A stretch of 64,000 nucleotides of DNA, taken from Escherichia phage ZX4221. The DNA lies in sequence record OR498728.1; one strand, given 5' to 3'. Shown piece after piece: positions 10,307 to 52,309 of this stretch; within the stretch, counting starts at the first letter, position 1; each line of letters begins with the position of its first letter. Under the pieces are notes generated by a model. It saw only the letters and a list, made by a program, of their open reading frames with translations, made no database searches and was not told the DNA's origin. Both the position numbers and the translations under genes were made by a program.

Positions 10307-11722
10307 ATGAGCGAATTATTTAAACATGCGCACCTTCATGCAGGTCGAACTGAAAATGGTGCTGTAAACCATACTTCATCAATGTCTGCTCTGGTAGACT
10401 TCTACAAAGCCGCTGGCTCAAGCCGTAGCAATGTAGAAATCTTACCAGACCTGTTCTACAAAGCTTTGCGTGAGGATGTTGATGTTGCAGTTCGTATTTT
10501 ACTGCATATGCGAGATGTACGAGAAGGTATGGGTGAGCGTAAAGCTTTCCGAACTGTTTTACTTCAAGCGATTGAAGATAAGGTTTTAGAACCTACACAG
10601 GTTCTTCGCATTATGGATAAGATTGCAGAGCTTGGTCGTTTTGATGACTTCAAAATCTTCGTAGGTACTCGTTTTGAGACAGATGCCTTCAAACATTTAG
10701 AAGCAGCATTACTAGACCCTGCAACAGCAGGTTTAGCGGCTAAGTGGTTACCACGAGTAAAACCACGCCACAAACAGTTTGTAAAACGTTTCTGTAAGTT
10801 TGCAAACTTAAGTGAGAAGGAGTATCGCACACTGTTATCTGCACTGTCCGATACGGTTGAGCAAAAAATCTCTGCTAATGAGTTTGGTAAGATTGACTAC
10901 AGCAAGATTCCTTCACTCGCTGCTGCACGTTACCAAAAGCTCTTTAACCGTAAAGATGGTGAACGTTACAAAGCTTATATCGAGTCACTCTCAAAGGGTG
11001 AGGCTAAGATTAACGCTGGTGCTGTTTACCCATACGATGTGATTAAATCTATCAAGTATGGTAATGCAGGTGTTGCTAATGAGCAGTGGAAAGCACTACC
11101 AAACTGGATGGCAGAGGGTGAAAACATCTTGTGTATGACTGATGTTTCAAGCTCAATGTCTTGGGTGAATCTTGGTTCAATCACTGCCCTTGATATTGGC
11201 GTATCACTTGCCTTGTATGTAGCAGAACGCAATACAGGTTGCTTTAAGAATGAGTTAATGGTTTATTCAACAAACCCTCACTTCATCGAACTGAGTGGTG
11301 ATTTGAGAAACCGTCACCGTCAGGTAATGCGTCATGTTGAATATGGTTCAACTAACTTACAAGCAGCTTTTGACCGCATTCTTGAAATAGGTAAGAGAAA
11401 CAACTTGACTCAGAAAGATATGCCAAGTAAGCTTATTATCTTCTCTGATATGGAGTTTAATCAGGTTGATGGTGCAAATGGTCGTACAAACTTTGAAGCA
11501 ATTCAGAGTAAGTACAAAAAAGCTGGATACGAAATGCCACAACTAGTATTCTGGTACTTAGCAAACCGTAATGGTACTTGCGAAGTATCTGTTAAAGATA
11601 ATGGTGTAGCAATGGTATCAGGGTTCTCTCCAGCCACTTTAAAAGCTCTGCTTGGTGGTGAGAAGTTTGACCCAATCAACGTAATGCTCAAAGCAGTAAT
11701 GGTTGACCGTTACATCTGGTAA
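10307..11722 (+). CDS. vWA (MIDAS) domain protein, putatively Ro60/TROVE-like RNA-binding protein
   Basis: 471 aa; C-terminal half has MIDAS-like TDVSSSM ... GSTN ... FSDME; N-terminal TENGAV...ALVDFYKAAGSSR resembles the start of TROVE domains from memory; good RBS; gene is certain, TROVE assignment is inference. Confidence 0.6.
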   Translation: MSELFKHAHLHAGRTENGAVNHTSSMSALVDFYKAAGSSRSNVEILPDLFYKALREDVDVAVRILLHMRDVREGMGERKAFRTVLLQAIEDKVLEPTQVLRIMDKIAELGRFDDFKIFVGTRFETDAFKHLEAALLDPATAGLAAKWLPRVKPRHKQFVKRFCKFANLSEKEYRTLLSALSDTVEQKISANEFGKIDYSKIPSLAAARYQKLFNRKDGERYKAYIESLSKGEAKINAGAVYPYDVIKSIKYGNAGVANEQWKALPNWMAEGENILCMTDVSSSMSWVNLGSITALDIGVSLALYVAERNTGCFKNELMVYSTNPHFIELSGDLRNRHRQVMRHVEYGSTNLQAAFDRILEIGKRNNLTQKDMPSKLIIFSDMEFNQVDGANGRTNFEAIQSKYKKAGYEMPQLVFWYLANRNGTCEVSVKDNGVAMVSGFSPATLKALLGGEKFDPINVMLKAVMVDRYIW

Positions 11723-11886: not shown

Positions 11887-11963
11887 CTCTGTTTAGCTCA
11901 GCTTGGTAGAGCGTTCCGTTTGGGGCGGTAAGGCCGGAGGTTCAAGTCCTCCAACAGAGACCA
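11887..11963 (+). tRNA. tRNA-Pro (anticodon TGG)
   Basis: Hand-folded: acceptor CTCTGTT/AACAGAG, D-stem GCTC/GAGC, anticodon loop TTTGGGG, T-arm GGAGG-TTCAAGT-CCTCC, CCA encoded. Confidence 0.75.
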
Positions 11964-11970
11964 AATTAAT

Positions 11971-12048
11971 GTTCCAGTAGACAAAACGGTAAAGTCACCA
12001 CTCTTTCAAAGTGGATATTTGAGGGTTCAAATCCCTTCTGGAACGCCA
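11971..12048 (+). tRNA. tRNA-Glu (anticodon TTC)
   Basis: Acceptor GTTCCAG/CTGGAAC, anticodon stem CCACT/AGTGG with loop CTTTCAA, T-loop TTCAAAT, CCA encoded. Confidence 0.7.
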
Positions 12049-12055
12049 GTCTTGA

Positions 12056-12128
12056 CAGAAGACCAATTGCAGCAAACTTAATCTTATTCATCTGACACGA
12101 AATCGGACAAAGAAGAGATTTGGTCTGG
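12056..12128 (+). ncRNA. Stem-closed structured element A (CAGAAGACC ... GGTCTGG family), Y-RNA-like candidate
   Basis: 5' CAGAAGACCAA pairs with 3' TTGGTCTGG (7 bp); conserved 5' box CAGAAGACCnnnTnCAGCAA; inner hairpin AATCT/AGATT; directly follows tRNA-Glu. Confidence 0.4.
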
Positions 12129-12139
12129 TCATTAAGAAT

Positions 12140-12216
12140 TGCGGGTATAGAGAAAGGGCGTCTCACATGTCTCATTAGCATGGTATCGGCAGGTTCGACT
12201 CCTGCACCCGCCTCCA
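12140..12216 (+). tRNA. tRNA-Met (anticodon CAT), copy 1
   Basis: T-arm GCAGG-TTCGACT-CCTGC, acceptor TGCGGGT/ACCCGCC with mismatch at pair 1-72, anticodon loop CTCATTA; CCA encoded. Confidence 0.6.
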
Positions 12217-12222
12217 ATTTTG

Positions 12223-12283
12223 CAGAAGACCGTATTCAGCAACAAACTACTTTTTGCGGATAAAAGAAAAAAACACGGTCTGG
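12223..12283 (+). ncRNA. Stem-closed structured element B (same family)
   Basis: 5' CAGAAGACCGT pairs with 3' ACGGTCTGG (7 bp); same 5' box as element A. Confidence 0.4.
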
Positions 12284-12294
12284 CAATGTATTAA

Positions 12295-12371
12295 GGTTAG
12301 GAAGCACATAAGGTATGTGCGGTCGCCTGTTAAGCGAATGGCACAGGGTTCGAATCCCTGACTAACCGCCA
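12295..12371 (+). tRNA. tRNA-Asn (anticodon GTT)
   Basis: D-stem GCAC/GTGC, anticodon loop CTGTTAA, T-arm CAGGG-TTCGAAT-CCCTG, acceptor GGTTAGG/ACTAACC, CCA encoded. Confidence 0.7.
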
Positions 12372-12380
12372 AATTTAAAT

Positions 12381-12468
12381 GTGTCGTTATCCCGTAGATG
12401 GTAGCGGTGGGGACTGTAAATCCCTTGTCATTGAGACTCGGTAGGTTCGACTCCTACACGGCACACCA
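12381..12468 (+). tRNA. tRNA-Tyr (anticodon GTA), long variable arm
   Basis: 88 nt; acceptor GTGTCGT/ACGGCAC, anticodon stem GGGGA/TCCCT loop CTGTAAA, T-arm GTAGG-TTCGACT-CCTAC, CCA encoded. Confidence 0.7.
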
Positions 12469-12474
12469 AATAAA

Positions 12475-12552
12475 GGTTATGTAGTTTAATCTGGTTAAAA
12501 TACTCCCCTGTCACGGGAGATGATGAGGGTTCAAATCCCTTCGTAACCGCCA
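12475..12552 (+). tRNA. tRNA-Asp (anticodon GTC)
   Basis: Anticodon stem CTCCC/GGGAG perfect, loop CTGTCAC, T-loop TTCAAAT, acceptor GGTTATG/CGTAACC, CCA encoded. Confidence 0.75.
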
Positions 12553-12639
12553 AATTATAATAAGTATTTCAAGATGATGTTTTGAGAGGGCTATTTAGCC
12601 CCTCCCTTAAAGAGTTCTTACGAGTATTCTTTAAAGGAG

Positions 12640-12713
12640 CAGAAGACCAAATGCAGCAAGAATGTATGAAATTTCAAGCCAATTTAATTTTGAAAATTTA
12701 AACTTGGTCTGGC
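12640..12713 (+). ncRNA. Stem-closed structured element C (same family)
   Basis: 5' CAGAAGACCAA ... 3' TTGGTCTGG; inner hairpin AAATTTCAA/TTGAAATTT. Confidence 0.4.
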
Positions 12714-12725
12714 TCAACAAATTTA

Positions 12726-12857
12726 CAGAAGACCGTTTACAGCAAAACTTAAACAATCTATTTCTCCGGTAAAGAAAAGGCGAAGGTTCGATTCCTTCAC
12801 TCGGCAGATGTCGAGTTGGTGTAATGGTAGCACTTAAGATGATAAACAACGGTCTGG
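12726..12857 (+). ncRNA. Stem-closed structured element D enclosing a circularly permuted tRNA-like module; Y-RNA (YrlA-type) candidate
   Basis: Outer 8 bp stem AGACCGTT/AACGGTCT; inside, in order: anticodon-like arm TTTCT-CCGGTAA-AGAAA, T-arm GAAGG-TTCGATT-CCTTC, ACTCGGC-A-GAT-GTCGAGT acceptor hairpin, D-arm GTGT-AATGGTA-GCAC. Confidence 0.5.
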
Positions 12858-12860
12858 TAA

Positions 12861-12999
12861 TTATCTTTGTAGATAAGTTATTAAGCTTCCCTGTGAGTAT
12901 GCGACCACAAAGGTGAAAGGGTAGATTCTAGATTTAACCCGAAAAGACACATCGCTACAGACCTTAAGCAAGTCTGGGTAGCTTATCTACAAAGATAAT
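12861..12999 (+). ncRNA. Structured element bounded by a perfect 17 bp inverted repeat
   Basis: TTATCTTTGTAGATAAG (12861-77) and its exact reverse complement (12983-99) enclose ~105 nt with internal hairpins. Confidence 0.4.
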
Positions 13000-13004
13000 T
13001 TAAT

Positions 13005-13080
13005 GGAAGTGTAGCAGAATGGTGATGCGGCAGACTTTTAATCTGACAGGCGATGGGTTCGAATCCCTCCACTTCTACCA
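13005..13080 (+). tRNA. tRNA-Lys (anticodon TTT)
   Basis: Acceptor GGAAGTG/CACTTCT, anticodon loop CTTTTAA, T-loop TTCGAAT with imperfect T-stem ATGGG/CCCTC, CCA encoded. Confidence 0.6.
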
Positions 13081-13084
13081 ATAT

Positions 13085-13161
13085 GGTTCAGTCGCAGATA
13101 AGGTAATGCAGGGGTTTCATAAGCCCTATGAATGTGGGTTCGATTCCCATCTGAACCTCCA
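13085..13161 (+). tRNA. tRNA-Met (anticodon CAT), copy 2 (initiator, elongator or Ile-lysidine not resolved)
   Basis: Acceptor GGTTCAG/CTGAACC perfect, anticodon stem GGGGT/GCCCT loop TTCATAA, T-arm GTGGG-TTCGATT-CCCAT, CCA encoded. Confidence 0.7.
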
Positions 13162-13162
13162 A

Positions 13163-13238
13163 GCTGGTATAGTTAAGAAGGTTATAACACTCCCCTGATA
13201 AGGGAACATCGGTGGTTCGATTCCACCTACCAGTACCA
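13163..13238 (+). tRNA. tRNA-Ile (anticodon GAT)
   Basis: D-stem GTTA/TAAC, anticodon loop CTGATAA, T-arm GGTGG-TTCGATT-CCACC, acceptor GCTGGTA/TACCAGT, CCA encoded. Confidence 0.7.
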
Positions 13239-13253
13239 ATTCCAATAAAGTTG

Positions 13254-13282
13254 TTGACATTGAGATGTGACCACTTTATAGT
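13254..13282 (+). promoter_or_regulatory. Internal sigma70-like promoter within tRNA array
   Basis: TTGACA 13254-59, 17 nt spacer, TATAGT 13277-82. Confidence 0.55.
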
Positions 13283-13574
13283 AACTAAAATACTTCATAA
13301 TATGTATAATTCAAACACCAATACATGAGTGTTAGACGTAACACAATGTGGGGAAATTTGTTGTACATATTCTGAATAGTTTTCGTTGCGTAGCGTCTAT
13401 TTTGCAAACTTAAAATAAATGCAAACGACAATGTTTTTCTGGCAGTAGCTTGATAGGCTAAACACCAGTGAGGTCTTCCAACCCCTCATCAAAGAATTTG
13501 GCGTACTCGCCCACGGTATGATTAATAAGGTGGGCATCTTTAAGGGCTTTTTAAGAGAGTCTTTAAAGATTAAT

Positions 13575-13651
13575 GCACCCTTAGTTCAACTGGACAGAGC
13601 AAATGACTTCTAATCATTGAGTTACAGGTTCGAATCCTGTAGGGTGTGCCA
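13575..13651 (+). tRNA. tRNA-Arg (anticodon TCT)
   Basis: Anticodon stem AATGA/TCATT perfect, loop CTTCTAA, T-arm ACAGG-TTCGAAT-CCTGT, acceptor GCACCCT/AGGGTGT, CCA encoded. Confidence 0.75.
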
Positions 13652-13793
13652 AATAGTTAGCAGATTGCTTAGACGACCTTATCGGGTCTCCGTGTAAGGA
13701 GGTGGTCTGTATCTCATGTTTTCCAGAACATGTAAATAATCTGAGAAGGGGCTTTACAGTGTTGCGAAAATACGGTAAGCTTCGAATTATAGT

Positions 13794-13876
13794 GTGGGAC
13801 GATGTTAAGACTCTAAGGCATGAGCAACGGCCTCCAAAACCGTTTCAAAGGGGTTCAACTCCTCCGTCCCATGCCA
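13794..13876 (+). tRNA. tRNA-Trp-like (anticodon CCA) with atypical extended D-region
   Basis: Acceptor GTGGGAC/GTCCCAT, anticodon arm ACGGC-CTCCAAA-ACCGT, T-loop TTCAACT, CCA encoded; about 8 extra nt between acceptor and D-stem, so canonical fold not achieved by hand. Confidence 0.4.
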
Positions 13877-13889
13877 AAGTCTTATTAGG

Positions 13890-13977
13890 GGTAGGTAGCG
13901 GCTAATGGTAGCCAAACTGTCTTGAAAACAGTTGCCACTGTAGAGATACGGTGAGGGTTCGACTCCTTTACTTACCG
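13890..13977 (+). tRNA. tRNA-Ser (anticodon TGA), long variable arm, CCA not encoded
   Basis: Acceptor GGTAGGT/ACTTACC, 3 bp D-stem, anticodon stem ACTGT/ACAGT perfect with loop CTTGAAA, ~20 nt variable arm, T-loop TTCGACT. Confidence 0.6.
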
Positions 13978-14235
13978 CCTAATAAGATTTTACACCGTCC
14001 ATGCTTGCTCGCATTTTCGGTTTATCCCTCGTGTATTGTCGTACACACTGATAAAGCACCTAGTAGGTGTCACGGAGAAGAGATAATATCAAGCTCTCCA
14101 AAGGTTCTAGTCACCGGATTGAACAAGACTATGCAAAGACCTAAATAGGTCTTTTTAGAGGGCTTCTAAGGTTATTACAGCTTGTTGTGGAACCTTGTTG
14201 CTTAGGTTCTTAGAAGTTCTCTAAAAAGATTTAAT

Positions 14236-14312
14236 GCACCTATAGCCCAACTGGTAGAGGCAGCAGACTTAGAATCTGCTCAGTGTGAGTTCGAATCTCT
14301 CTAGGTGTACCA
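14236..14312 (+). tRNA. tRNA-Leu-type anticodon TAG, class I (short variable arm) architecture
   Basis: 77 nt; acceptor GCACCTA/TAGGTGT, anticodon stem GCAGA/TCTGC perfect, loop CTTAGAA, 5 nt variable loop, discriminator A, CCA encoded. Confidence 0.6.
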
Positions 14313-14319
14313 AATTAAT

Positions 14320-14395
14320 GCAGGTGTAGCAAAATGGTTATGCGGCTGACTCTTAATCAGTAAGACGATGGGTTCAATTCCCTCCACCTGTACCA
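14320..14395 (+). tRNA. tRNA-Lys (anticodon CTT)
   Basis: Paralog of tRNA-Lys(TTT): acceptor GCAGGTG/CACCTGT, anticodon loop CTCTTAA, T-loop TTCAATT with same imperfect T-stem, CCA encoded. Confidence 0.6.
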
Positions 14396-14401
14396 AACAT
14401 T

Positions 14402-14477
14402 GGGGATGTAGTTTACATGGTTAAAACATAAGTTTTGCAAACTTAAGTACAGGGTTCAATTCCCTGCTTCTCCACCA
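14402..14477 (+). tRNA. tRNA-Ala (anticodon TGC)
   Basis: G3:U70 wobble pair present in acceptor stem; anticodon stem TAAGT/ACTTA perfect, loop TTTGCAA; T-arm CAGGG-TTCAATT-CCCTG; CCA encoded. Confidence 0.75.
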
Positions 14478-14483
14478 ATTAGT

Positions 14484-14558
14484 GCATCCATAGTTTAAAC
14501 GGGAAAATTACAGTCTTCCAAACTGAGGTTGAGGGTTCGATTCCCTCTGGATGCTCCA
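14484..14558 (+). tRNA. tRNA-Gly (anticodon TCC)
   Basis: Acceptor GCATCCA/TGGATGC perfect, anticodon loop CTTCCAA, T-arm GAGGG-TTCGATT-CCCTC, CCA encoded. Confidence 0.75.
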
Positions 14559-14565
14559 AATTAAT

Positions 14566-14641
14566 GCTCCTATCGTATAATTGGCTATTACGGTTGCCTT
14601 GTAAGCAACTTATCAGGGTTCGAATCCTTGTGGGAGCACCA
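14566..14641 (+). tRNA. tRNA-Thr (anticodon TGT)
   Basis: Anticodon stem GTTGC/GCAAC perfect, loop CTTGTAA, T-arm CAGGG-TTCGAAT-CCTTG, acceptor GCTCCTA/TGGGAGC, CCA encoded. Confidence 0.75.
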
Positions 14642-14645
14642 ATTC

Positions 14646-14731
14646 AGAGGTCAAGTGAAAGACCGCTGGTGTCAACTGAAGACCGTAACAAATTCCACGG
14701 AGTTGAGTTAGCGGCACAACTTCAGACCTCT
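14646..14731 (+). ncRNA. Structured element E, divergent relative of the CAGAAGACC family
   Basis: Outer stem AGAGGTC/GACCTCT; contains CTGAAGACCGTAACAAATT resembling the family 5' box; nested stems CCGCT/AGCGG and CTGAAG/CTTCAG. Confidence 0.3.
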
Positions 14732-14736
14732 TTCAT

Positions 14737-14811
14737 ACTCGCTTAGTTTATATGGTAAAACATCACCCTTACAAGATGGAGAAAAAGGTTCAAGTCCTTT
14801 AGTGAGTACCA
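14737..14811 (+). tRNA. tRNA-Val (anticodon TAC)
   Basis: D-stem GTTT/AAAC, anticodon loop CTTACAA, T-arm AAAGG-TTCAAGT-CCTTT, acceptor ACTCGCT/AGTGAGT, CCA encoded. Confidence 0.7.
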
Positions 14812-14812
14812 T

Positions 14813-14890
14813 GTTCCAGTATCCCAATTGGCAGAGGATGCAAGCTCAAACCTTGTACTAGTGACGGTTCGAATCCGTCTTGGAACACCA
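14813..14890 (+). tRNA. tRNA-Leu-type anticodon CAA, class I (short variable arm) architecture
   Basis: 78 nt; acceptor GTTCCAG/TTGGAAC, anticodon stem GCAAG/CTTGT, loop CTCAAAC, ~6 nt variable loop, T-arm GACGG-TTCGAAT-CCGTC, discriminator A, CCA encoded. Confidence 0.55.
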
Positions 14891-14895
14891 ATTTT

Positions 14896-14971
14896 GCAGG
14901 ATTAGTTCAAATGGATAGAGCAACAGTCTACGAAGCTGTTAATAGGGGTTCGAATCCCTTATCCTGCGCCA
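14896..14971 (+). tRNA. tRNA-Arg (anticodon ACG)
   Basis: Acceptor GCAGGAT/ATCCTGC perfect, D-stem GTTC/GAGC, anticodon loop CTACGAA, T-loop TTCGAAT, CCA encoded. Confidence 0.75.
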
Positions 14972-14989
14972 GATAAGTAAGAGGAATTT

Positions 14990-15232
14990 ATGCAAACATT
15001 AATCGTCGTTGAACATGAAAATTCCAATAGTATTGAGTTTGTAAGGGTTCCCACTATAGATACCCACATTTTCTTGAAAGTCGGATGGGGATGTGACCCA
15101 ATAAAAGTAGAAAATTTTATTGGTCATTACTTTGGTGGAAGACAACTTAAAAGCGTCAATTTTGAGACAATGTTACCAGAAAACTCAGAAACAAATAATA
15201 ATGTTTATCTCCTTACGAGGATTAGACAATGA
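14990..15232 (+). CDS. hypothetical protein inside tRNA array (80 aa)
   Basis: AAGAGGA Shine-Dalgarno 6 nt before ATG; stop overlaps next start (ATGA). Confidence 0.45.
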   Translation: MQTLIVVEHENSNSIEFVRVPTIDTHIFLKVGWGCDPIKVENFIGHYFGGRQLKSVNFETMLPENSETNNNVYLLTRIRQ

Positions 15233-15786
15233 GATATCTGAAGTATGCTTCATGGATTTTCCTAGCTTTGTTAGACCCATTGGCAGCAACCTTAGCAGTT
15301 ATCTTAGCACCCTTTGTAGTCCCATTCTACAGTGAGAAGAAAGGCCATCTACCTTTTGGATTCAGATGGATGGAGACATATGACAACCCGATTGATGGCG
15401 ATGAAGGTCATATGAAACGATGGGCTAAGATTAGAAAGATTGGTAAGCTCGGTGTCTATATGCAGAGAGTTGGCTGGCTCTGGAGAAACAAAGCTTATAA
15501 CTTCTCTTACCATGTGTTAGGAAGAGATGTAAAAGATGTTACTAAGTGGAAAGGTAATATCAACGTGAGTTCTGACCCTGAAGATAATCAGACAGGTTAT
15601 CTCCTAATGTGGAACAGTAATGCTTGGGGATTATTTGCTTTTATCCCATCAATTAAAATCTTTGGTAAACAATTCTACTGGAGAATTTATGTTGGATGGA
15701 AACTTAAAAGTGTTGTCCCAGAAGAAAGAGCATTCTCAAGGGAAAGAGTTATGTTGGCATTCTTTATTCATCCACTGAGAAAGTAA
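15229..15786 (+). CDS. hypothetical protein with hydrophobic N-terminus inside tRNA array (185 aa)
   Basis: ORF-track ORF; translationally coupled to 14990..15232; N-terminal WIFLALLDPLAATLAVILAPFVVPF looks membrane-associated. Confidence 0.5.
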   Translation: MRYLKYASWIFLALLDPLAATLAVILAPFVVPFYSEKKGHLPFGFRWMETYDNPIDGDEGHMKRWAKIRKIGKLGVYMQRVGWLWRNKAYNFSYHVLGRDVKDVTKWKGNINVSSDPEDNQTGYLLMWNSNAWGLFAFIPSIKIFGKQFYWRIYVGWKLKSVVPEERAFSRERVMLAFFIHPLRK

Positions 15787-15794
15787 AGATTTAA

Positions 15795-15870
15795 AGGGGA
15801 TTAGTTTACAAGGTTAAAACCTCGGTCTTTGAAATCGAAGAAGTTGGTTCAATTCCAACATCCCCCGCCA
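15795..15870 (+). tRNA. tRNA-Gln (anticodon TTG)
   Basis: Anticodon stem TCGGT/ATCGA, loop CTTTGAA, T-arm GTTGG-TTCAATT-CCAAC, A1-C72 mismatch at top of acceptor, discriminator G, CCA encoded. Confidence 0.65.
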
Positions 15871-15872
15871 AT

Positions 15873-15951
15873 GCTCCATTACTCCAATTGGCAGAGAGGC
15901 CAGACTTAAAATCTGTGTTATGTATCGGTTCGAATCCGATATGGAGTACCA
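15873..15951 (+). tRNA. tRNA-Leu-type anticodon TAA, class I (short variable arm) architecture
   Basis: 79 nt; acceptor GCTCCAT/ATGGAGT, anticodon stem CAGA/TCTG, loop CTTAAAA, ~7 nt variable loop, T-arm ATCGG-TTCGAAT-CCGAT perfect, discriminator A, CCA encoded. Confidence 0.55.
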
Positions 15952-15956
15952 AATTT

Positions 15957-16032
15957 AGCGGTATAGCATAACTGGCAATGCAGCAGTCTCTGAAGCTGTC
16001 TTATTAAGGTTCAAATCCTTATGCCGCTGCCA
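15957..16032 (+). tRNA. tRNA-Gln (anticodon CTG)
   Basis: Acceptor AGCGGTA/TGCCGCT, D-stem GCAT/ATGC, anticodon loop CTCTGAA, T-arm TAAGG-TTCAAAT-CCTTA, discriminator G, CCA encoded. Confidence 0.65.
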
Positions 16033-16063
16033 CTTCTAAGGGTTCTTACGAGAGTCCTTAAAT

Positions 16064-16139
16064 GTGGCCTTATCATAAATGGTAATGACCCATGCTGTGA
16101 ACATGGTCTATACGGGTTCAAATCCCGTAGGTCACCCCA
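16064..16139 (+). tRNA. tRNA-His (anticodon GTG)
   Basis: Anticodon stem CCATG/CATGG perfect, loop CTGTGAA, D-stem TCAT/ATGA, T-arm ACGGG-TTCAAAT-CCCGT, discriminator C; no encoded G-1 (preceding base is T). Confidence 0.7.
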
Positions 16140-16145
16140 ATTTAT

Positions 16146-16221
16146 AGTCCAAGTAGCTTATATGGTTAAAGCGCGTGTCTGAAAAACATGAGAAGAGGGT
16201 TCAAATCCCACTGGACTACCA
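16146..16221 (+). tRNA. tRNA-Phe (anticodon GAA), irregular acceptor/linker geometry
   Basis: Anticodon stem CGTGT/ACATG, loop CTGAAAA, D-stem GCTT/AAGC, T-loop TTCAAAT; acceptor pairs only as 6 bp or with a 4 nt linker to the D-stem; boundaries uncertain. Confidence 0.55.
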
Positions 16222-16237
16222 ATTTCAAAGGTGCTTA

Positions 16238-16972
16238 ATGAAAGAGATGACAGAACAAGGTAAGGAGATTTTTAATCTCTTAAAAACCGGTAGAGGGTTT
16301 TCTAATCCCCTTATTACTGGTGCAGCAGTTCTCGGTGGAACCGTAGCTGCCTCTACATCACTTGTAAGCTCTATTAGCTCTGTAACAGACCCTACAATAA
16401 AGGATAAGCTTATTGCTGCTGGACTTACAACAGTTCTGCTTAACAGCTTTACAACGAGTCTGACAAGCACTACATCAACCACTAAGACACTGACAGATTA
16501 TGGTCAAAAGTCCATTGATGAGTTTTCATCACGTATGCAGGTAGCAAAAGGATATTCCAATGTTATGGGTGCAGCAGGAGAACAAGTCGGTTGTACACCA
16601 TTTAGTGGTATTATGGGTGTTGCTACAGAATATGGTCAAAAAGCTATTGACACAATTAACAGTGCACTAGATGGTGTTAATGATGTGTTAAGTGACTTAC
16701 AAGATGCTATTGATGAAGGTCTTGATACTATTTCTGATTTAGCTAACCAAGCTGTTAGCAAGATTAATGAAGGTATCTCGAAGATTACAGCTTATGCAGA
16801 TGAAGTTGTGCAGATGATTGAAGAAGAAGCTGCCCTTATTGCAGAGTACCTTAAAACGAATATCAATGGGTTCTTAGCAGGTATCTTACCAGACTGGTTT
16901 GATGATGCTTGTAAAACTGGTGTAATTGATACTATTGCAACACCAGAAATGAAGAACGCATTACAGAAATAA
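16238..16972 (+). CDS. hypothetical Ser/Thr-rich protein (244 aa)
   Basis: ORF-track ORF trimmed to first ATG with RBS (AAAGG) that does not overlap tRNA-Phe. Confidence 0.5.
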   Translation: MKEMTEQGKEIFNLLKTGRGFSNPLITGAAVLGGTVAASTSLVSSISSVTDPTIKDKLIAAGLTTVLLNSFTTSLTSTTSTTKTLTDYGQKSIDEFSSRMQVAKGYSNVMGAAGEQVGCTPFSGIMGVATEYGQKAIDTINSALDGVNDVLSDLQDAIDEGLDTISDLANQAVSKINEGISKITAYADEVVQMIEEEAALIAEYLKTNINGFLAGILPDWFDDACKTGVIDTIATPEMKNALQK

Positions 16973-16973
16973 T

Positions 16974-17066
16974 GGAAGATTAACCCTAAAAGGTAAGGGA
17001 GCAGTTTGCTAAACTGCCAGTAGCTGAGAAATCGGTGTACCAGTTCAAGTCTGGTATCTTCCTCCA
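16974..17066 (+). tRNA. tRNA-Ser (anticodon GCT), long variable arm
   Basis: 93 nt; acceptor GGAAGAT/ATCTTCC perfect, anticodon stem GCAGT/ACTGC perfect, loop TTGCTAA, T-arm ACCAG-TTCAAGT-CTGGT, CCA encoded. Confidence 0.75.
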
Positions 17067-17070
17067 ATTT

Positions 17071-17146
17071 GAATCCGTGACAGAAATGGCTATGTGCCTG
17101 TCTGCAAAACAGGTTTATAAGGGTTCGAGTCCCTTCGGATTCTCCA
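17071..17146 (+). tRNA. tRNA-Cys (anticodon GCA)
   Basis: Acceptor GAATCCG/CGGATTC perfect, anticodon stem CCTGT/ACAGG perfect, loop CTGCAAA, T-arm AAGGG-TTCGAGT-CCCTT, CCA encoded. Confidence 0.75.
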
Positions 17147-49550: not shown

Positions 49551-52250
49551 TTAGTGTACTTCAAGCCAGCTTTTGCCAACCTTACCAGTACCTGTAACAA
49601 GCGTTTCTTTCTTAAGACCTAAGTTTTTAGAAGCTTGTCCATAATACCAGTCAGTAACTGCTTTCACATCTGCCGTCATACTCTCTGGACATTCCCAACT
49701 CGTCTCGTCGTGATATGCGCAGAGCAAACGAGCACCAATAGCTGGTTGACGACCATTCAACTTCATCAAACCTTCGTCAATCATACGACGACAAGCAAGG
49801 TTAATCGCCTCATTTTGAATCTGAGCCTCTGAACCCATTAGCAAATAATTCAATAACTTATGTGGAGATTTACACCACAACCAAGCTCCAGCAACCCTTA
49901 CAAAACCCCCTTTAGAGATTGCAGCAGTTTTACCAAACACCTCTTCAAGTGCCTTTTTAGTTGCTTTGTAGTCAGCTTCCAAGTCATCTAGCAACTTCTT
50001 AATTTTAGGCAAACGAATAAAGTAAGTCTGTTTAGTCAGTGCACCTTCCTGAGTAGTTGCAGCTTTAATCGTCTTAGCAAACTTCTCATCACCTGCACCG
50101 AACAGTAGTGCATAGATACCATTCTTAGCTTTCTTACGGCCCTTGCTAATCTCATGGAGAAGGTTCTCATCCTGAGTAGCTCGACAAGTCAAGATATCCT
50201 GCTCATCATTCAAGCTAAAGTAAATACTGTTCAGTGTGTGTGCATCAGTCCCTGAATAGACAACGTAAAGGTCGTTCTCAGAGTCATAGCGAAGGTACTT
50301 ATCAATCTCTGGGTTGAGGTACTCATCAAAGTGTTTGCAGTAATAGCGTCCATCTTCTTGACGAATAAACTCAATCTCTTCTTTACCTTGCGTTACCGCT
50401 TTGGTGAAGTCTTTGTCACCCATAAAGTTACAAAGAAGAACTAGCTGGGCTGAGTTCATGTCTACAGAGACAACGTTAGTACCTTCCTCACAAATCCATA
50501 CTGCCCTCATTGGTTCCCCATAGACAGCAGCACCAGACGGTACGTTTACAATACCATACTGTGTCATACGTCCAGTTGAAGTACCAAATACCATTGCACC
50601 AGCACTAAGGCGACCATCTGGACGAATCTGGTTCAACCAACCTTTTTCATCATCCTTTGAGTTCTCAATAGTTCTGCGTCGGTGCATCAAGGTATAGTAC
50701 TTAGCAATCTTCTGTCCAAGCTCACCTTCAATCGTATCATAAGATGATTCAGTAAGTTTTGGTGAAGTACGGATTAAGCAAGGCTCAAGCAAATCTGTGT
50801 ACTTCTTCACAGACCAGTTATGCTCAATGTATTGGACACCTTCATGTTCAACATAACTCAAACCACACCGTTCAACCATCTCCTGCCACTTAGGATGCTT
50901 GGTAATCATCTTTTTGTTGTCTTTGAAACGACAAACCTTAACAGGACGACCATCTGAGTCTTTCTTGTAGTTCCAGTCATCTGGAATCCAACCAACTGAT
51001 TTCAAGTAGTCTTTAACAACTGCTACCTGAGTCATACGAGAAACTTCGAACTCAATTGGTGTATATGGTGCATCAATCAAACCTGTGTAGCGACTTGACT
51101 CAAGTTCAAAGTGGTTAACAACATGACTGTTATAGTACTTCACAGTCTTAACTGTTTTTACTGGCTTCCAGTCTTTGCACTTCTTACCAATCTTTGCATT
51201 CAACTCATTGCAAATTGCACGAGCATCCTTCATTGCTACAAAACCTTCCTTGTACTCTTCACCAGTTACAGAGTTGGTTGGGGTATAGCAATTCCGCTTT
51301 TCAATGTTAAAAATCTTGGTAGTTGGTTTACCAAATGGCTTGATTTCATATGTCTGCATCTCACCGTTACGTACCTGTTGACGATACTTTGTCTTAGGGT
51401 ACTTGGTAATTCTTTTCAGTCCATCTGCATGACCAAACGCTTCAACATACTCATTCCAAGCTTTTGCAAACTCTTCTCCAGTAACTTTACCTTTGGTTTT
51501 AATAGTTGGAGGAAGATGTGGTTCAACTTCTGAAGCAAGCTCATTAGTCAACTTGTCAAGTTCCTTTACATGGAACTCCATAAGCTCTTTATCAGCTTTC
51601 CAACCATTGATAGCCTGTTGACTCATCCAGAAAGATGTTTCTTTAGCTCGCATGTAGGTTTCATAAGTATCTACGCCACACTTCTTCAGCTTGAGATATT
51701 CATTATCCAGTGCACGTTTAGTTTTGGCGTTAATACGAATATCCTCTACGACACGAGTGAAGATTTCTGCATTCCACACACCCCAATGTTCAATCTCTGG
51801 TTTACGTACACCAACACGAGCACCCCATGCTGCCAAGCCATGAGCACCTTTATAGCCCTTTGGAGTTGGTCTATCCATCCACTGAACACGAGACTGGATA
51901 AGAGAATCCTGAAAGAAATTACTCCACGGCTTACACTTTGGATTATCAAAGTTCCATAAATCAGGTGCAATGTGATTGAAAACCCACCAGTCATAACCCA
52001 GACCATTATGGATGCAAAGTCGTTTTGCCTTTAACGCAAACTCAATACCTTCACGCAAACCACCCTTGATGTACTTGGTGTATTTGTGACCGAGGATAGG
52101 CTCATCTGTAAAGACCCATACAGGTGGCTCTTCATCGTCAGATTTATAGTCTGCGAAAGCCATTACGTGCACTTTAGTGAACTCAAGGAGTAAACCATCA
52201 GTTTCTGTATCACCAACTAAATGTAAGTTTTTAAAATCTACGTTTTCCAT
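49551..52250 (-). CDS. DNA polymerase, family A, with 3'-5' exonuclease domain
   Basis: N-terminal DTETDGL (exo motif I); VDMNSAQLVLL (motif A-like); KNGIYALLFGAG (motif B-like); YHDE (motif C); start set to ATG following AGAGGGAG RBS. Confidence 0.85.
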   Translation of the reverse strand: MENVDFKNLHLVGDTETDGLLLEFTKVHVMAFADYKSDDEEPPVWVFTDEPILGHKYTKYIKGGLREGIEFALKAKRLCIHNGLGYDWWVFNHIAPDLWNFDNPKCKPWSNFFQDSLIQSRVQWMDRPTPKGYKGAHGLAAWGARVGVRKPEIEHWGVWNAEIFTRVVEDIRINAKTKRALDNEYLKLKKCGVDTYETYMRAKETSFWMSQQAINGWKADKELMEFHVKELDKLTNELASEVEPHLPPTIKTKGKVTGEEFAKAWNEYVEAFGHADGLKRITKYPKTKYRQQVRNGEMQTYEIKPFGKPTTKIFNIEKRNCYTPTNSVTGEEYKEGFVAMKDARAICNELNAKIGKKCKDWKPVKTVKTVKYYNSHVVNHFELESSRYTGLIDAPYTPIEFEVSRMTQVAVVKDYLKSVGWIPDDWNYKKDSDGRPVKVCRFKDNKKMITKHPKWQEMVERCGLSYVEHEGVQYIEHNWSVKKYTDLLEPCLIRTSPKLTESSYDTIEGELGQKIAKYYTLMHRRRTIENSKDDEKGWLNQIRPDGRLSAGAMVFGTSTGRMTQYGIVNVPSGAAVYGEPMRAVWICEEGTNVVSVDMNSAQLVLLCNFMGDKDFTKAVTQGKEEIEFIRQEDGRYYCKHFDEYLNPEIDKYLRYDSENDLYVVYSGTDAHTLNSIYFSLNDEQDILTCRATQDENLLHEISKGRKKAKNGIYALLFGAGDEKFAKTIKAATTQEGALTKQTYFIRLPKIKKLLDDLEADYKATKKALEEVFGKTAAISKGGFVRVAGAWLWCKSPHKLLNYLLMGSEAQIQNEAINLACRRMIDEGLMKLNGRQPAIGARLLCAYHDETSWECPESMTADVKAVTDWYYGQASKNLGLKKETLVTGTGKVGKSWLEVH

Positions 52251-52309
52251 TTTTACTCCCTCTAAAATCATTAACCTCATACATTACTGCAAAAAATTAT
52301 AAAAAGCAA

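Follow-up and report, generated by a model that had tools for sequence, protein, structure and literature searches.

Irregular tRNAs that carry an extra loop, the 'E-loop', between the acceptor stem and the D-stem, and that are predicted to adopt an 8/4 arrangement, have been described from tRNA polycistrons in soil metatranscriptomes, where they were inferred to be acidobacterial and were found among the false positives of a tRNA-Sec model (Mukai et al. 2017, PMC5389517). E-loop and (8/4) allo-tRNA-like sequences have also been reviewed (Krahn et al. 2020, PMC7609411). The E-loop tRNAs are bacterial, are linked to toxin-antitoxin genes and have anticodons other than the one considered here (GCU, with U73), and the one tested was not charged in vitro.

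Here we analysed 64,000 nucleotides of Escherichia phage ZX4221 (OR498728.1), the whole stretch being called the window, in which an 83-nt tRNA-like gene, GTGGGACGATGTTAAGACTCTAAGGCATGAGCAACGGCCTCCAAAACCGTTTCAAAGGGGTTCAACTCCTCCGTCCCATGCCA, lies at 13794-13876 on the + strand. The E-loop tRNAs are its nearest structural precedent, with the extra loop between acceptor and D-stem, the predicted 8/4 arrangement, the location in tRNA polycistrons and a sub-threshold match to tRNA-Sec in common. On the other hand, the present gene is phage-encoded, has a coherent set of Trp identity features and a clear canonical ancestor, and lacks a long variable arm. Since its nearest relative is a canonical phage tRNA-Trp, the comparison suggests an origin independent of the published E-loop tRNAs. 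The gene is probably the tRNA-Trp gene of the Felixounavirus/Mooglevirus/Suspvirus/Wc4-P778 lineage (Ounavirinae) in a structurally remodelled form.

Compared with the canonical tRNA-Trp of E. coli (trpT) and of Kolesnikvirus, the latter encoded in the same phage tRNA array, the gene retains CCA in a YUCCAAM loop, G73, A1-U72 in most copies, a TTCRANT T-loop and GG in the D-loop. However, it has 9-10 unpaired nucleotides in place of 2 between acceptor stem and D-stem, a 3-bp D-stem with a new 5' strand, a covarying 26-44 pair, an A49.C65 mismatch and likely an 8/4 rather than a 7/5 acceptor/T arrangement. It also follows tRNA-Arg(TCT) and precedes tRNA-Ser(TGA), whereas the Kolesnikvirus gene lies between tRNA-Gly and tRNA-Thr. 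With tRNA-Sec it shares a possible 8-bp acceptor stem and, if C31.A39 is counted as the sixth layer, a six-layer anticodon stem. However, its anticodon is CCA and not UCA, it has a 5-nt variable region instead of a long arm and no 6-bp D-stem with a 4-nt loop, and it scores only 23 bits against 47 in the tRNA-Sec comparison given below.

The tRNA-Trp-like gene and its array

The source is a Felixounavirus-type myovirus; the 801 bases around the gene have 97.9% identity to Escherichia phage HMD-P10, and hundreds of Felix-O1-like genomes match them as well. ARAGORN called 26 tRNA genes in the window at 11887-17146, all on the + strand and together covering 19 amino acids. The statement of the initial annotation that Trp is the only specificity missing from the array was borne out, Trp being the sole amino acid without a called tRNA, and the same is true of the complete genome of phage JH2. 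The gene sits in the 238-nt gap between tRNA-Arg(TCT) at 13575-13651 and tRNA-Ser(TGA) at 13890-13979, and keeps the style of the array: it is on the + strand, a U stands at -1, the encoded CCA leads into A-rich sequence, and 13 nt separate it from the next tRNA. Note that CCA is encoded in 25 of the 26 called array tRNAs. The parts of the gene are as follows.

13794-13876, + strand: whole tRNA-Trp-like gene, from position 1 to the encoded CCA; scored by family covariance model R1.
13794-13800, + strand: acceptor stem 5' strand GTGGGAC, pairing with 13866-13872; compensatory changes at 1-72 and 2-71.
13801-13810, + strand: extra connector or 'E-loop', GATGTTAAGA; invariant in 18/18 versions, where a normal tRNA has 2 nt.
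13811-13824, + strand: D-arm, with stem CTC (13811-13813)/GAG (13822-13824) supported by covariation and loop TAAGGCAT with its invariant GG.
13826-13844, + strand: anticodon arm, with stem AACGG/CCGTT (4 of 5 pairs covary), 9-nt open loop CCTCCAAAA and anticodon CCA at 13834-13836.
13845-13849, + strand: variable region TCAAA, 5 nt; invariant in 18/18 versions.
13850-13865, + strand: T-arm, with stem GGGG/CCTC and loop TTCAACT (13850-13864), then C13865; pair 50-64 covaries.
13866-13876, + strand: acceptor 3' strand GTCCCAT (13866-13872), discriminator G (13873) and CCA (13874-13876); G73 and CCA invariant in 18/18 versions.

The acceptor stem, T-arm, CCA-anticodon arm and encoded CCA noted initially are thus all visible in the sequence, with an acceptor stem in the window copy of G1.U72 and six Watson-Crick pairs. 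The two-nucleotide connector of the canonical cloverleaf (positions 8-9) is absent; in its place stands GATGTTAAG(A), 9-10 nt at 13801-13810. Between the acceptor 5' strand and the D-stem supported by covariation there are 10 unpaired bases (13801-13810), or 9 if the invariant A10.C25 mismatch is counted in the D-stem. The connector of 9-10 nt (GAUGUUAAGA) therefore exceeds the 2 nt of a normal tRNA by about 7-8 nt, in agreement with the roughly 8 extra nucleotides first reported.

Detection by tRNA finders and annotation

Checking with ARAGORN under relaxed and intron-aware settings had been proposed; no Trp call was obtained at the gene in the standard, relaxed (-ps, down to 50%) or intron (-i) mode, and the metazoan-mitochondrial mode (-mt) alone called mtRNA-Trp(cca), at 13795-13872. 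In seven further gaps between array tRNAs, this mode called nothing on the + strand. In Rfam, the sole matching family was tRNA-Sec (RF01852), at 13796-13870 and below threshold, with 23 bits against a gathering score of 47. The tRNA model RF00005 had no match listed for the gene at E<=10; note that for the tRNA clan Rfam reports the best-scoring model alone, here tRNA-Sec. A covariance model built from the family gave the window copy 110.9 bits, a score that is high by construction, and the best matches outside the family reached 39 bits, where the canonical tRNA-Trp of Erwinia phage phiEa21-4 tied with the tRNA-Arg(ACG) of the window.

About 238 phage records contain the gene, 89 of them at >=99% identity. 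Among the roughly 120 matches listed and the regions fetched from these records, none had a tRNA annotated at the site, and the gene was also missing from those inspected records that had been annotated with tRNAscan-SE. In some GenBank records a hypothetical protein is annotated across the site (small ORF 13702-13905), and Trp was absent from every tRNA set examined in Felix-O1-like records. Literature searches found no published description of the gene. Seven extra bases between acceptor stem and D-arm thus cause the gene to be missed by standard tRNA finders and by about 240 public annotations. Among phages used for typing and therapy, Felix O1 and its relatives are classics, and the tRNA missing from their sets is present in a shape that detectors reject.

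Conservation and covariation

Rejection by the standard finders, a single-sequence minimum free energy z-score of only -1.5 and the hypothetical protein annotated across the site would all be consistent with a dead gene, that is, a pseudogene inactivated by an insertion or a chance tRNA-like sequence, or alternatively a part of the small ORF 13702-13905. We therefore describe the conservation of the gene with respect to this explanation, which we consider highly improbable on the evidence that follows.

The gene is hosted by Felixounavirus, Mooglevirus, Suspvirus and an unclassified Pectobacterium/Yersinia group (Wc4, P778), and occurs also in IMG/VR and metagenome contigs, so that at least four genus-level lineages and metagenomes keep it, which is not expected of a dead gene. 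We compared 18 distinct versions, with a subset of 13 sequences used for pairing statistics. In the 13-sequence alignment, standard pairs made up 99.6% of cells, and double compensatory changes affected 8 of the 19 pairs, every helix having one or more. With the 3' partners slid by 1-3 columns as a control, 31-51% of cells were paired and no compensatory change was seen. The compensatory pattern persisted in the 18 distinct versions, and RNAalifold predicted the cloverleaf de novo, no structure being supplied.

The changes are distributed over the whole molecule. The anticodon stem occurs as AACGG/CCGTT, GTAAG/CTTAC, GTAGG/CCTAC, GACGG/CCGTT, GTAAG/CTTGC and ACTTG/CAAGT, and the D-stem as CTC/GAG, CAC/GTG, TAC/GTG and CGT/ACG, its middle pair being U-A in 11 versions, A-U in 6 and G-C in 1, and its third pair C-G or U-A. 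The T-stem is GGGG/CCTC or TGGG/CCTA, with pair 50-64 as G-C or U-A, and the acceptor top is AT../..AT, GT../..AT or GC../..GC, with A-U, G.U or G-C at 1-72 and U-A or C-G at 2-71 among the 18 versions. Positions 26-44 also form a covarying Watson-Crick pair. Among 44 distinct loci, 63% of the columns of the gene were invariant, the highest share in the region, against 30% in the adjacent tRNA-Ser and 3-13% in the flanks, a sign of purifying selection. The D-loop GG was invariant, and the T-loop was TTCRANT in 17 of 18 versions, the exception being the low-quality A132 record.

These results indicate that the gene is a genuine, conserved and unannotated non-canonical tRNA gene, a structural claim that we regard as strong. 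Since covariation, the RNAalifold cloverleaf and the invariant-column share all bear on it, a degenerate copy, a chance resemblance and the small ORF are excluded; compensatory substitutions in all four helices and a share of invariant columns above that of a genuine neighbouring tRNA are the opposite of what inactivation would leave. As for coding, the D-loop varies in length (+1 in metagenome contig L210, +2 in Wc4 and P778, with a further +1 in the acceptor 3' strand of P778), and these indels shift the frame of ORF 13702-13905, whose open stretch ranges from 31 to 116 codons across lineages; the coding explanation was accordingly rejected. Two further origins of the extra segment were also rejected. 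An assembly artefact does not apply, the segment being identical in about 238 independent records and in metagenomes. An intron was rejected as well, ARAGORN having returned no Trp model with intron and relaxed settings; 7 nt are too few for a group I intron, and to our knowledge bacteria lack a tRNA splicing endonuclease.

Some positions remain irregular in all copies. A10.C25, C31.A/C39 and A49.C65 were never Watson-Crick in the 18 versions. Position 31.39 was C.A in 16 and C.C in 2 versions, so that the 31-39 pair that closes a 7-nt loop is absent and the loop is effectively 9 nt. In divergent lineages the acceptor top is irregular, Wc4 and P778 each having a single base bulged out and L210 two mismatches.

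A first scan with the 14-mer GGGACGATGTTAAG gave mostly chance matches, and structured patterns were used instead. In 185,579 bacterial and archaeal genomes the pattern scan found no copy of the gene, only chance pattern matches and ordinary tRNAs. Note that in the leader-motif scan of viral contigs the pattern was too degenerate to inform outside Ounavirinae.

The invariant connector

The connector was identical in all 18 distinct versions, and remained unchanged even in the divergent lineage L210, where D-stem and anticodon stem both have a new sequence. Furthermore, it was carried unchanged by 19 of 19 metagenome contigs that had been retrieved with a bait pattern of variable loop, T-arm and acceptor. 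Since these contigs were found without the connector as bait and all carry it, its invariance cannot be put down to ascertainment. That 10 unpaired nucleotides stay strictly invariant suggests a role that ordinary tRNAs do not have; tertiary contacts, a protein handle and protection from a nuclease are candidate reasons.

RNAalifold paired the invariant G13801 (G8) with C13865 (C65), which gives an 8-bp acceptor stem on a 4-bp T-stem. The predicted shape is accordingly an 8/4 acceptor/T arrangement, which also fits A49.C65 never being Watson-Crick; all three bases are invariant, however, so that the G8-C65 pair carries no covariation signal. The choice of D-stem, on the other hand, could be decided by covariation. 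The alternative stem GUU/AGC, to which the tRNA-Sec model aligns, was rejected as a 3' A-to-U change breaks its pairing in Mooglevirus and Wc4, whereas CUC/GAG is compensated, and the D-arm TTAA/TGAG of the ARAGORN -mt call is not supported by covariation.

Tryptophan identity and canonical relatives

The anticodon, G73 and the first base pair are major Trp determinants in E. coli and B. subtilis, and U31-A39 is a computationally predicted determinant in E. coli (PMC9976931). The anticodon CCA (C34-C35-A36) and the discriminator G73 were each invariant in 18 of 18 versions, and the first pair 1-72 was A-U in 11, G.U in 4 (including the window) and G-C in 3. Position 31.39 is never paired in the gene, in contrast to the predicted U31-A39. 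The loop CUCCAAA is that of E. coli trpT, a single-copy gene whose sequence we verified in 5,426 genomes.

Phage JH2 is identical (100% over 116 nt) to the window in the gene and its flanks, and in its complete genome ARAGORN called 26 tRNAs in one array, none of them for Trp, while the family model found one copy of the gene. No canonical tRNA-Trp thus occurs elsewhere in this complete close relative, and no match to one was found in the Felix-like records. Conversely, the representatives of the sister genus Kolesnikvirus (Erwinia phages phiEa21-4 and FIfi106) have a canonical tRNA-Trp of 76 nt between the tRNA-Gly and tRNA-Thr genes, which in the window are adjacent and 7 nt apart. A search of the first 50 kb of phiEa21-4, where its whole tRNA array lies, found no copy of the expanded form. 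The phiEa21-4 tRNA-Trp shares with the gene a 15-nt anticodon-arm core, CGGCCTCCAAAACCG, the C31.A39 mismatch, A1-U72 and G73; in FIfi106 the core is the variant GGCTTCCAAACCC, which is also present in Wc4. A canonical tRNA with the T-arm of the gene was not found in viral contigs.

The canonical and the expanded forms are therefore homologous and mutually exclusive, which more than anything else argues that the expanded form does the job of tRNA-Trp. The three origins first offered for the gene fare differently: a Trp-type tRNA with an unusual fold brought about by an insertion fits CCA and G73 in every version and the replacement of the canonical gene of the sister genus, while a degenerate copy is contradicted by the compensated helices and the invariant segment. 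Judged from its sequence features, the gene product is probably charged with Trp and decodes UGG, for which these features provide good support.

An altered mode of decoding by such a tRNA-Trp may also be imagined, namely a Hirsh-type UGA reader or a frameshift suppressor, acting through the D-arm and connector or through the open 9-nt loop. Mutations of tRNA-Trp at D-arm position 24 and at position 9 permit UGA reading, and the change in the gene falls in this same region; a loop that is effectively 9 nt, as 31.39 never pairs, would also fit. However, we found no in-frame TGA readthrough candidate in the window, where long extensions were only antisense shadows of the DNA polymerase gene. TGA was not depleted either: it accounts for 17-25% of the stop codons in the window and in JH2, and for 20% in phiEa21-4 with its canonical tRNA-Trp. 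Furthermore, the open 31.39 is common to the canonical Kolesnikvirus tRNA-Trp, indicating that it is not linked to the insertion. We thus regard altered decoding as quite unlikely.

A possible role outside translation

We also considered whether the gene product might be a tRNA mimic that derives from tRNA-Trp but acts outside translation, as a decoy for a defence nuclease that targets tRNAs, as a ligand of TrpRS or of some other protein that binds tRNAs, or as the RNA bound by a Ro-like protein, the connector being the recognition site. Such a role is possible but, to our mind, doubtful. It would account for the invariance of the 10-nt connector and the 5-nt variable region while the stems drift, which exceeds what looping out would need, as well as for the irregular acceptor top of Wc4, P778 and L210 and for the permanently open 31.39. 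E-loop irregular tRNAs were moreover not chargeable in vitro, and a regulatory role has been suggested for the related allo-tRNAs (PMC5389517). Against this, every feature needed for charging and decoding has been retained under selection, including the CCA anticodon in a U33 loop, G73, the encoded CCA, the T-loop and the D-loop GG. The gene is also present exactly where canonical tRNA-Trp is absent, which argues that it took over that job.

A 471-aa Ro-like RNA-binding protein is encoded at 10307-11722, just upstream of the array, and may be regarded as a candidate partner. This vWA protein was assigned to DUF2828/DUF7788, and a TROVE domain was not reported in the Pfam scan. A tRNA-like RNA near the gene of a Ro-like vWA protein recalls the Y RNAs (YrlA) and their Ro60-like proteins. 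In YrlA, however, the stem that binds Ro is built from the 5' and 3' ends, and there is neither an anticodon arm nor a CCA-ended acceptor, whereas the ends of the present RNA form an acceptor stem with G73 and CCA; the YrlA model of Rfam (RF02553) had no match at the gene. In addition, Ro-like proteins are widespread in phages that do not have the gene (KVP40, Aeh1, mycobacteriophages, A511), and no Ro-like gene lies beside the tRNA array of phiEa21-4, both of which count against this role. The gene is not a tRNA-Sec, a Y RNA or a pseudogene.

With regard to defence, it is known that phages use tRNAs to counter host defences, some of which cleave the D-loop (PMC12916289); examples cited there are T5 tRNA-Lys against PARIS, phage tRNA-Tyr against retron or Septu systems, and anticodon-loop variants (eLife 2023). 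By analogy, the present gene resembles these tRNAs in being phage-encoded and in departing from the host isoacceptor in regions that can be targeted by nucleases (D-arm and anticodon stem-loop). No defence system that targets tRNA-Trp was identified in enterobacteria, and the link to counter-defence is purely one of analogy.

A remodelled tRNA-Trp that is used in translation could itself make use of the connector. We tentatively propose that the connector may be a functional module on a working tRNA-Trp, which would leave the tRNA fit for charging and use but shield it from a host factor directed at the D-arm and core of tRNA-Trp, or block such a factor, or which would serve as a handle for a phage protein such as the Ro-like neighbour; we hold this refinement to be possible rather than probable.

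Proposed fold and use in translation

In the predicted fold of the remodelled tRNA-Trp, an 8-bp acceptor stem (seven pairs and G8-C65) would be followed by the 9-nt connector and a 3-bp D-stem and completed by a 4-bp T-stem. The GG of the D-loop would dock on the T-loop to form the elbow, and a 5-bp anticodon stem with an open 31.39 would present CCA. Stacked lengths would remain near canonical, with 8+4 = 12 pairs in the acceptor/T stack, and with the 3-bp D-stem, the covarying 26-44 pair and positions 27-31 in the D/anticodon stack. In a canonical tRNA, positions 8-9 lie in the deep groove of the D-stem beside the variable region, on the face where the long arm of class II tRNAs projects, and therefore a looped-out connector could be tolerated by EF-Tu and the ribosome.

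From the array style of the gene and the CCA encoded by nearly all of its neighbours, co-transcription and standard processing are expected: the gene would be transcribed with the array, RNase P would cut the 5' end after the U at -1, and exonucleases would trim the 3' end back to the encoded CCA. Host TrpRS would then charge the RNA by way of the CCA anticodon, G73 and the first base pair, and the charged RNA would read UGG, adding to the supply from the single tRNA-Trp gene of the host.

If the RNA is charged and used in this way, the translation machinery tolerates a 9-10-nt connector from acceptor to D-stem at a position that has been treated as fixed at 2 nt. The poorly understood E-loop tRNAs would in that case gain a tractable model in E. 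coli/Salmonella phages, together with a canonical sister form, and counts of phage tRNA repertoires, as well as arguments from "missing" specificities, would be biased by the blind spots of detectors. If, in addition, the connector is a functional module as proposed above, the gene would provide the first natural 'E-loop' tRNA to be characterised for which the amino-acid identity is defined and a canonical origin can be traced. If the RNA acts outside translation, it would be a conserved tRNA mimic whose invariant loop points to some partner.

Origin of the connector

When the two forms were aligned, the connector sequence GATGTTAAG stood opposite positions 8-16 of canonical tRNA-Trp (TAGTTTAAC or TAGTTCAAT), and the additional bases followed the connector. 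We infer that the ancestor was a canonical phage tRNA-Trp(CCA) like the Kolesnikvirus gene, and that an insertion of about 7 nt in its D region may have provided a new 5' strand, CUC, that pairs with the 3' strand of the D-stem. The displaced ancestral segment, positions 8-16 (GAUGUUAAG), would have been left as the single-stranded connector, with the old 5' strand GUU unpaired. The old pairing GUU/AGC can still form in Felix-type copies but no longer in Mooglevirus and Wc4, whereas compensatory changes preserve the new stem. An origin of the insert by tandem duplication, with GUUAAGAC and UCUAAGGC identical at 5 of 8 positions, is possible but weak.

Finally, part of the connector and the adjoining D-stem (TAAGACT, 13806-13812) is complementary to the trailer (AGTCTTA, 13878-13884). 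Pairing between the two was rejected as a conserved feature, since, as judged by eye, it is confined to Felix-type copies and is not found in the SUSP2, Wc4 and L210 trailers, and we treat the complementarity as due to chance or as lineage-specific.

Anticodon stem of tRNA-Trp and a tRNA-like neighbour in Kolesnikvirus

Kolesnikvirus, the sister genus, carries 'canonical' tRNA-Trp genes, which were located in two phages as follows.

L192:24578-24653, 'canonical' tRNA-Trp of phiEa21-4
L195:3503-3578, 'canonical' tRNA-Trp of FIfi106

The anticodon stem of both tRNAs has only three Watson-Crick pairs, position 27.43 being U.C or U.U and position 31.39 being C.A or C.C. It follows that an open anticodon stem-loop is the ancestral state of Ounavirinae tRNA-Trp, independent of the connector insertion found in the Trp-like element.

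phiEa21-4 additionally has a tRNA-like sequence at the place in the array where Felix-like phages carry the Trp-like element.

L192:23959-24044, 86-nt tRNA-like sequence of phiEa21-4, 3' of tRNA-Arg(TCT)

In this sequence AGTGATT/AATCACT makes up an acceptor stem and GAGG-TTCGAAT-CCTT a T-arm, the 3' end reads CGCCA, and the score with R1, the covariance model of the element family, was 18 bits. Neither a D-arm nor an anticodon arm was recognisable, and ARAGORN made no call for it.

Flanking sequences of the Trp-like element

A conserved three-part leader precedes the element by approximately 45-95 nt, and further copies were found in other loci.

13698-13749, + strand, leader in the window
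L192:24413-24475, leader copy in phiEa21-4
L210:1247-1310, leader copy in a divergent metagenome contig
L198, - strand, leader copy

The first part, GGAGGTGGTCTGTATCTC, can fold as an invariant hairpin (GAGGUG/UAUCUC), and the 3' end of 16S rRNA is nearly complementary to it. The second part is a hairpin whose sequence varies with compensation (CATGTT..AACATG, CCTGAC..GTCAGG, CCAGAC..GTCTGG and CGTGA..TCACG), and the third is a small GNRA-type hairpin, CTGAGAAG / CTGTGAAG. No Rfam family matched the leader, and no conserved ORF spans the region. The same leader precedes the Gly and canonical Trp tRNA genes of Kolesnikvirus. It is not present upstream of the element copies in Wc4 and P778, unclassified Pectobacterium/Yersinia phages.

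On the 3' side, the trailer directly past the CCA of the element, AGTCTTA (13878-13884, + strand), is perfectly complementary over 7 bases to TAAGACT (13806-13812, + strand), which runs across the connector and the first D-stem bases. This complementarity was seen in Felix-type copies and was absent in the trailers of L210, Wc4 and SUSP2.

The spacer 5' of the element is a rearrangement hotspot. In Shigella phage Sf16, an annotated HNH homing endonuclease gene ends ~160 nt 5' of the element, and in Shigella phage ESh22 a CDS without a name occupies the same coordinates. In Felix O1, ORF100 is annotated within the spacer, and ARAGORN did not call tRNA-Arg(TCT) upstream of the element.

Other features of the window

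The following features belong to the tRNA array or lie directly 5' of it.

10307-11722, + strand, 471-aa protein with DUF2828 and DUF7788/vWA domains, directly 5' of the array
12749-12800, + strand, weak partial tRNA match (22 bits, model positions 7-64)
13254-13282, + strand, best match to a sigma-70-like promoter within the array (TTGACA-17-TATAGT, 11/12)

The protein, annotated as 'Ro-like RNA-binding protein' in some records, had tblastn matches in 709 phage records, many of them from tRNA-rich phages (including KVP40, Aeh1, mycobacteriophages, Listeria A511 and Klebsiella FBKp34), and is possibly a tRNA-related factor. The partial tRNA match sits inside the 452-nt gap from tRNA-Asp to tRNA-Lys, and the T-arm within it, GAAGG-TTCGATT-CCTTC, looks intact; the match probably represents either a piece of a tRNA or a further irregular tRNA. 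The roughly 250 nt that follow the promoter match (13327-13574, + strand) gave weak sub-threshold tmRNA and permuted-tmRNA matches. For phage Mordin, ARAGORN called a 'permuted tmRNA' of doubtful validity in the equivalent stretch (L002:1871-2620).

Outside the array, the DNA polymerase gene (49551-52280, - strand) is a single ORF of 909 aa. In the complete close relative JH2, the annotation splits the polymerase (L193:35586-39087) into two CDS separated by an additional ORF, suggesting an intervening element in some relatives.
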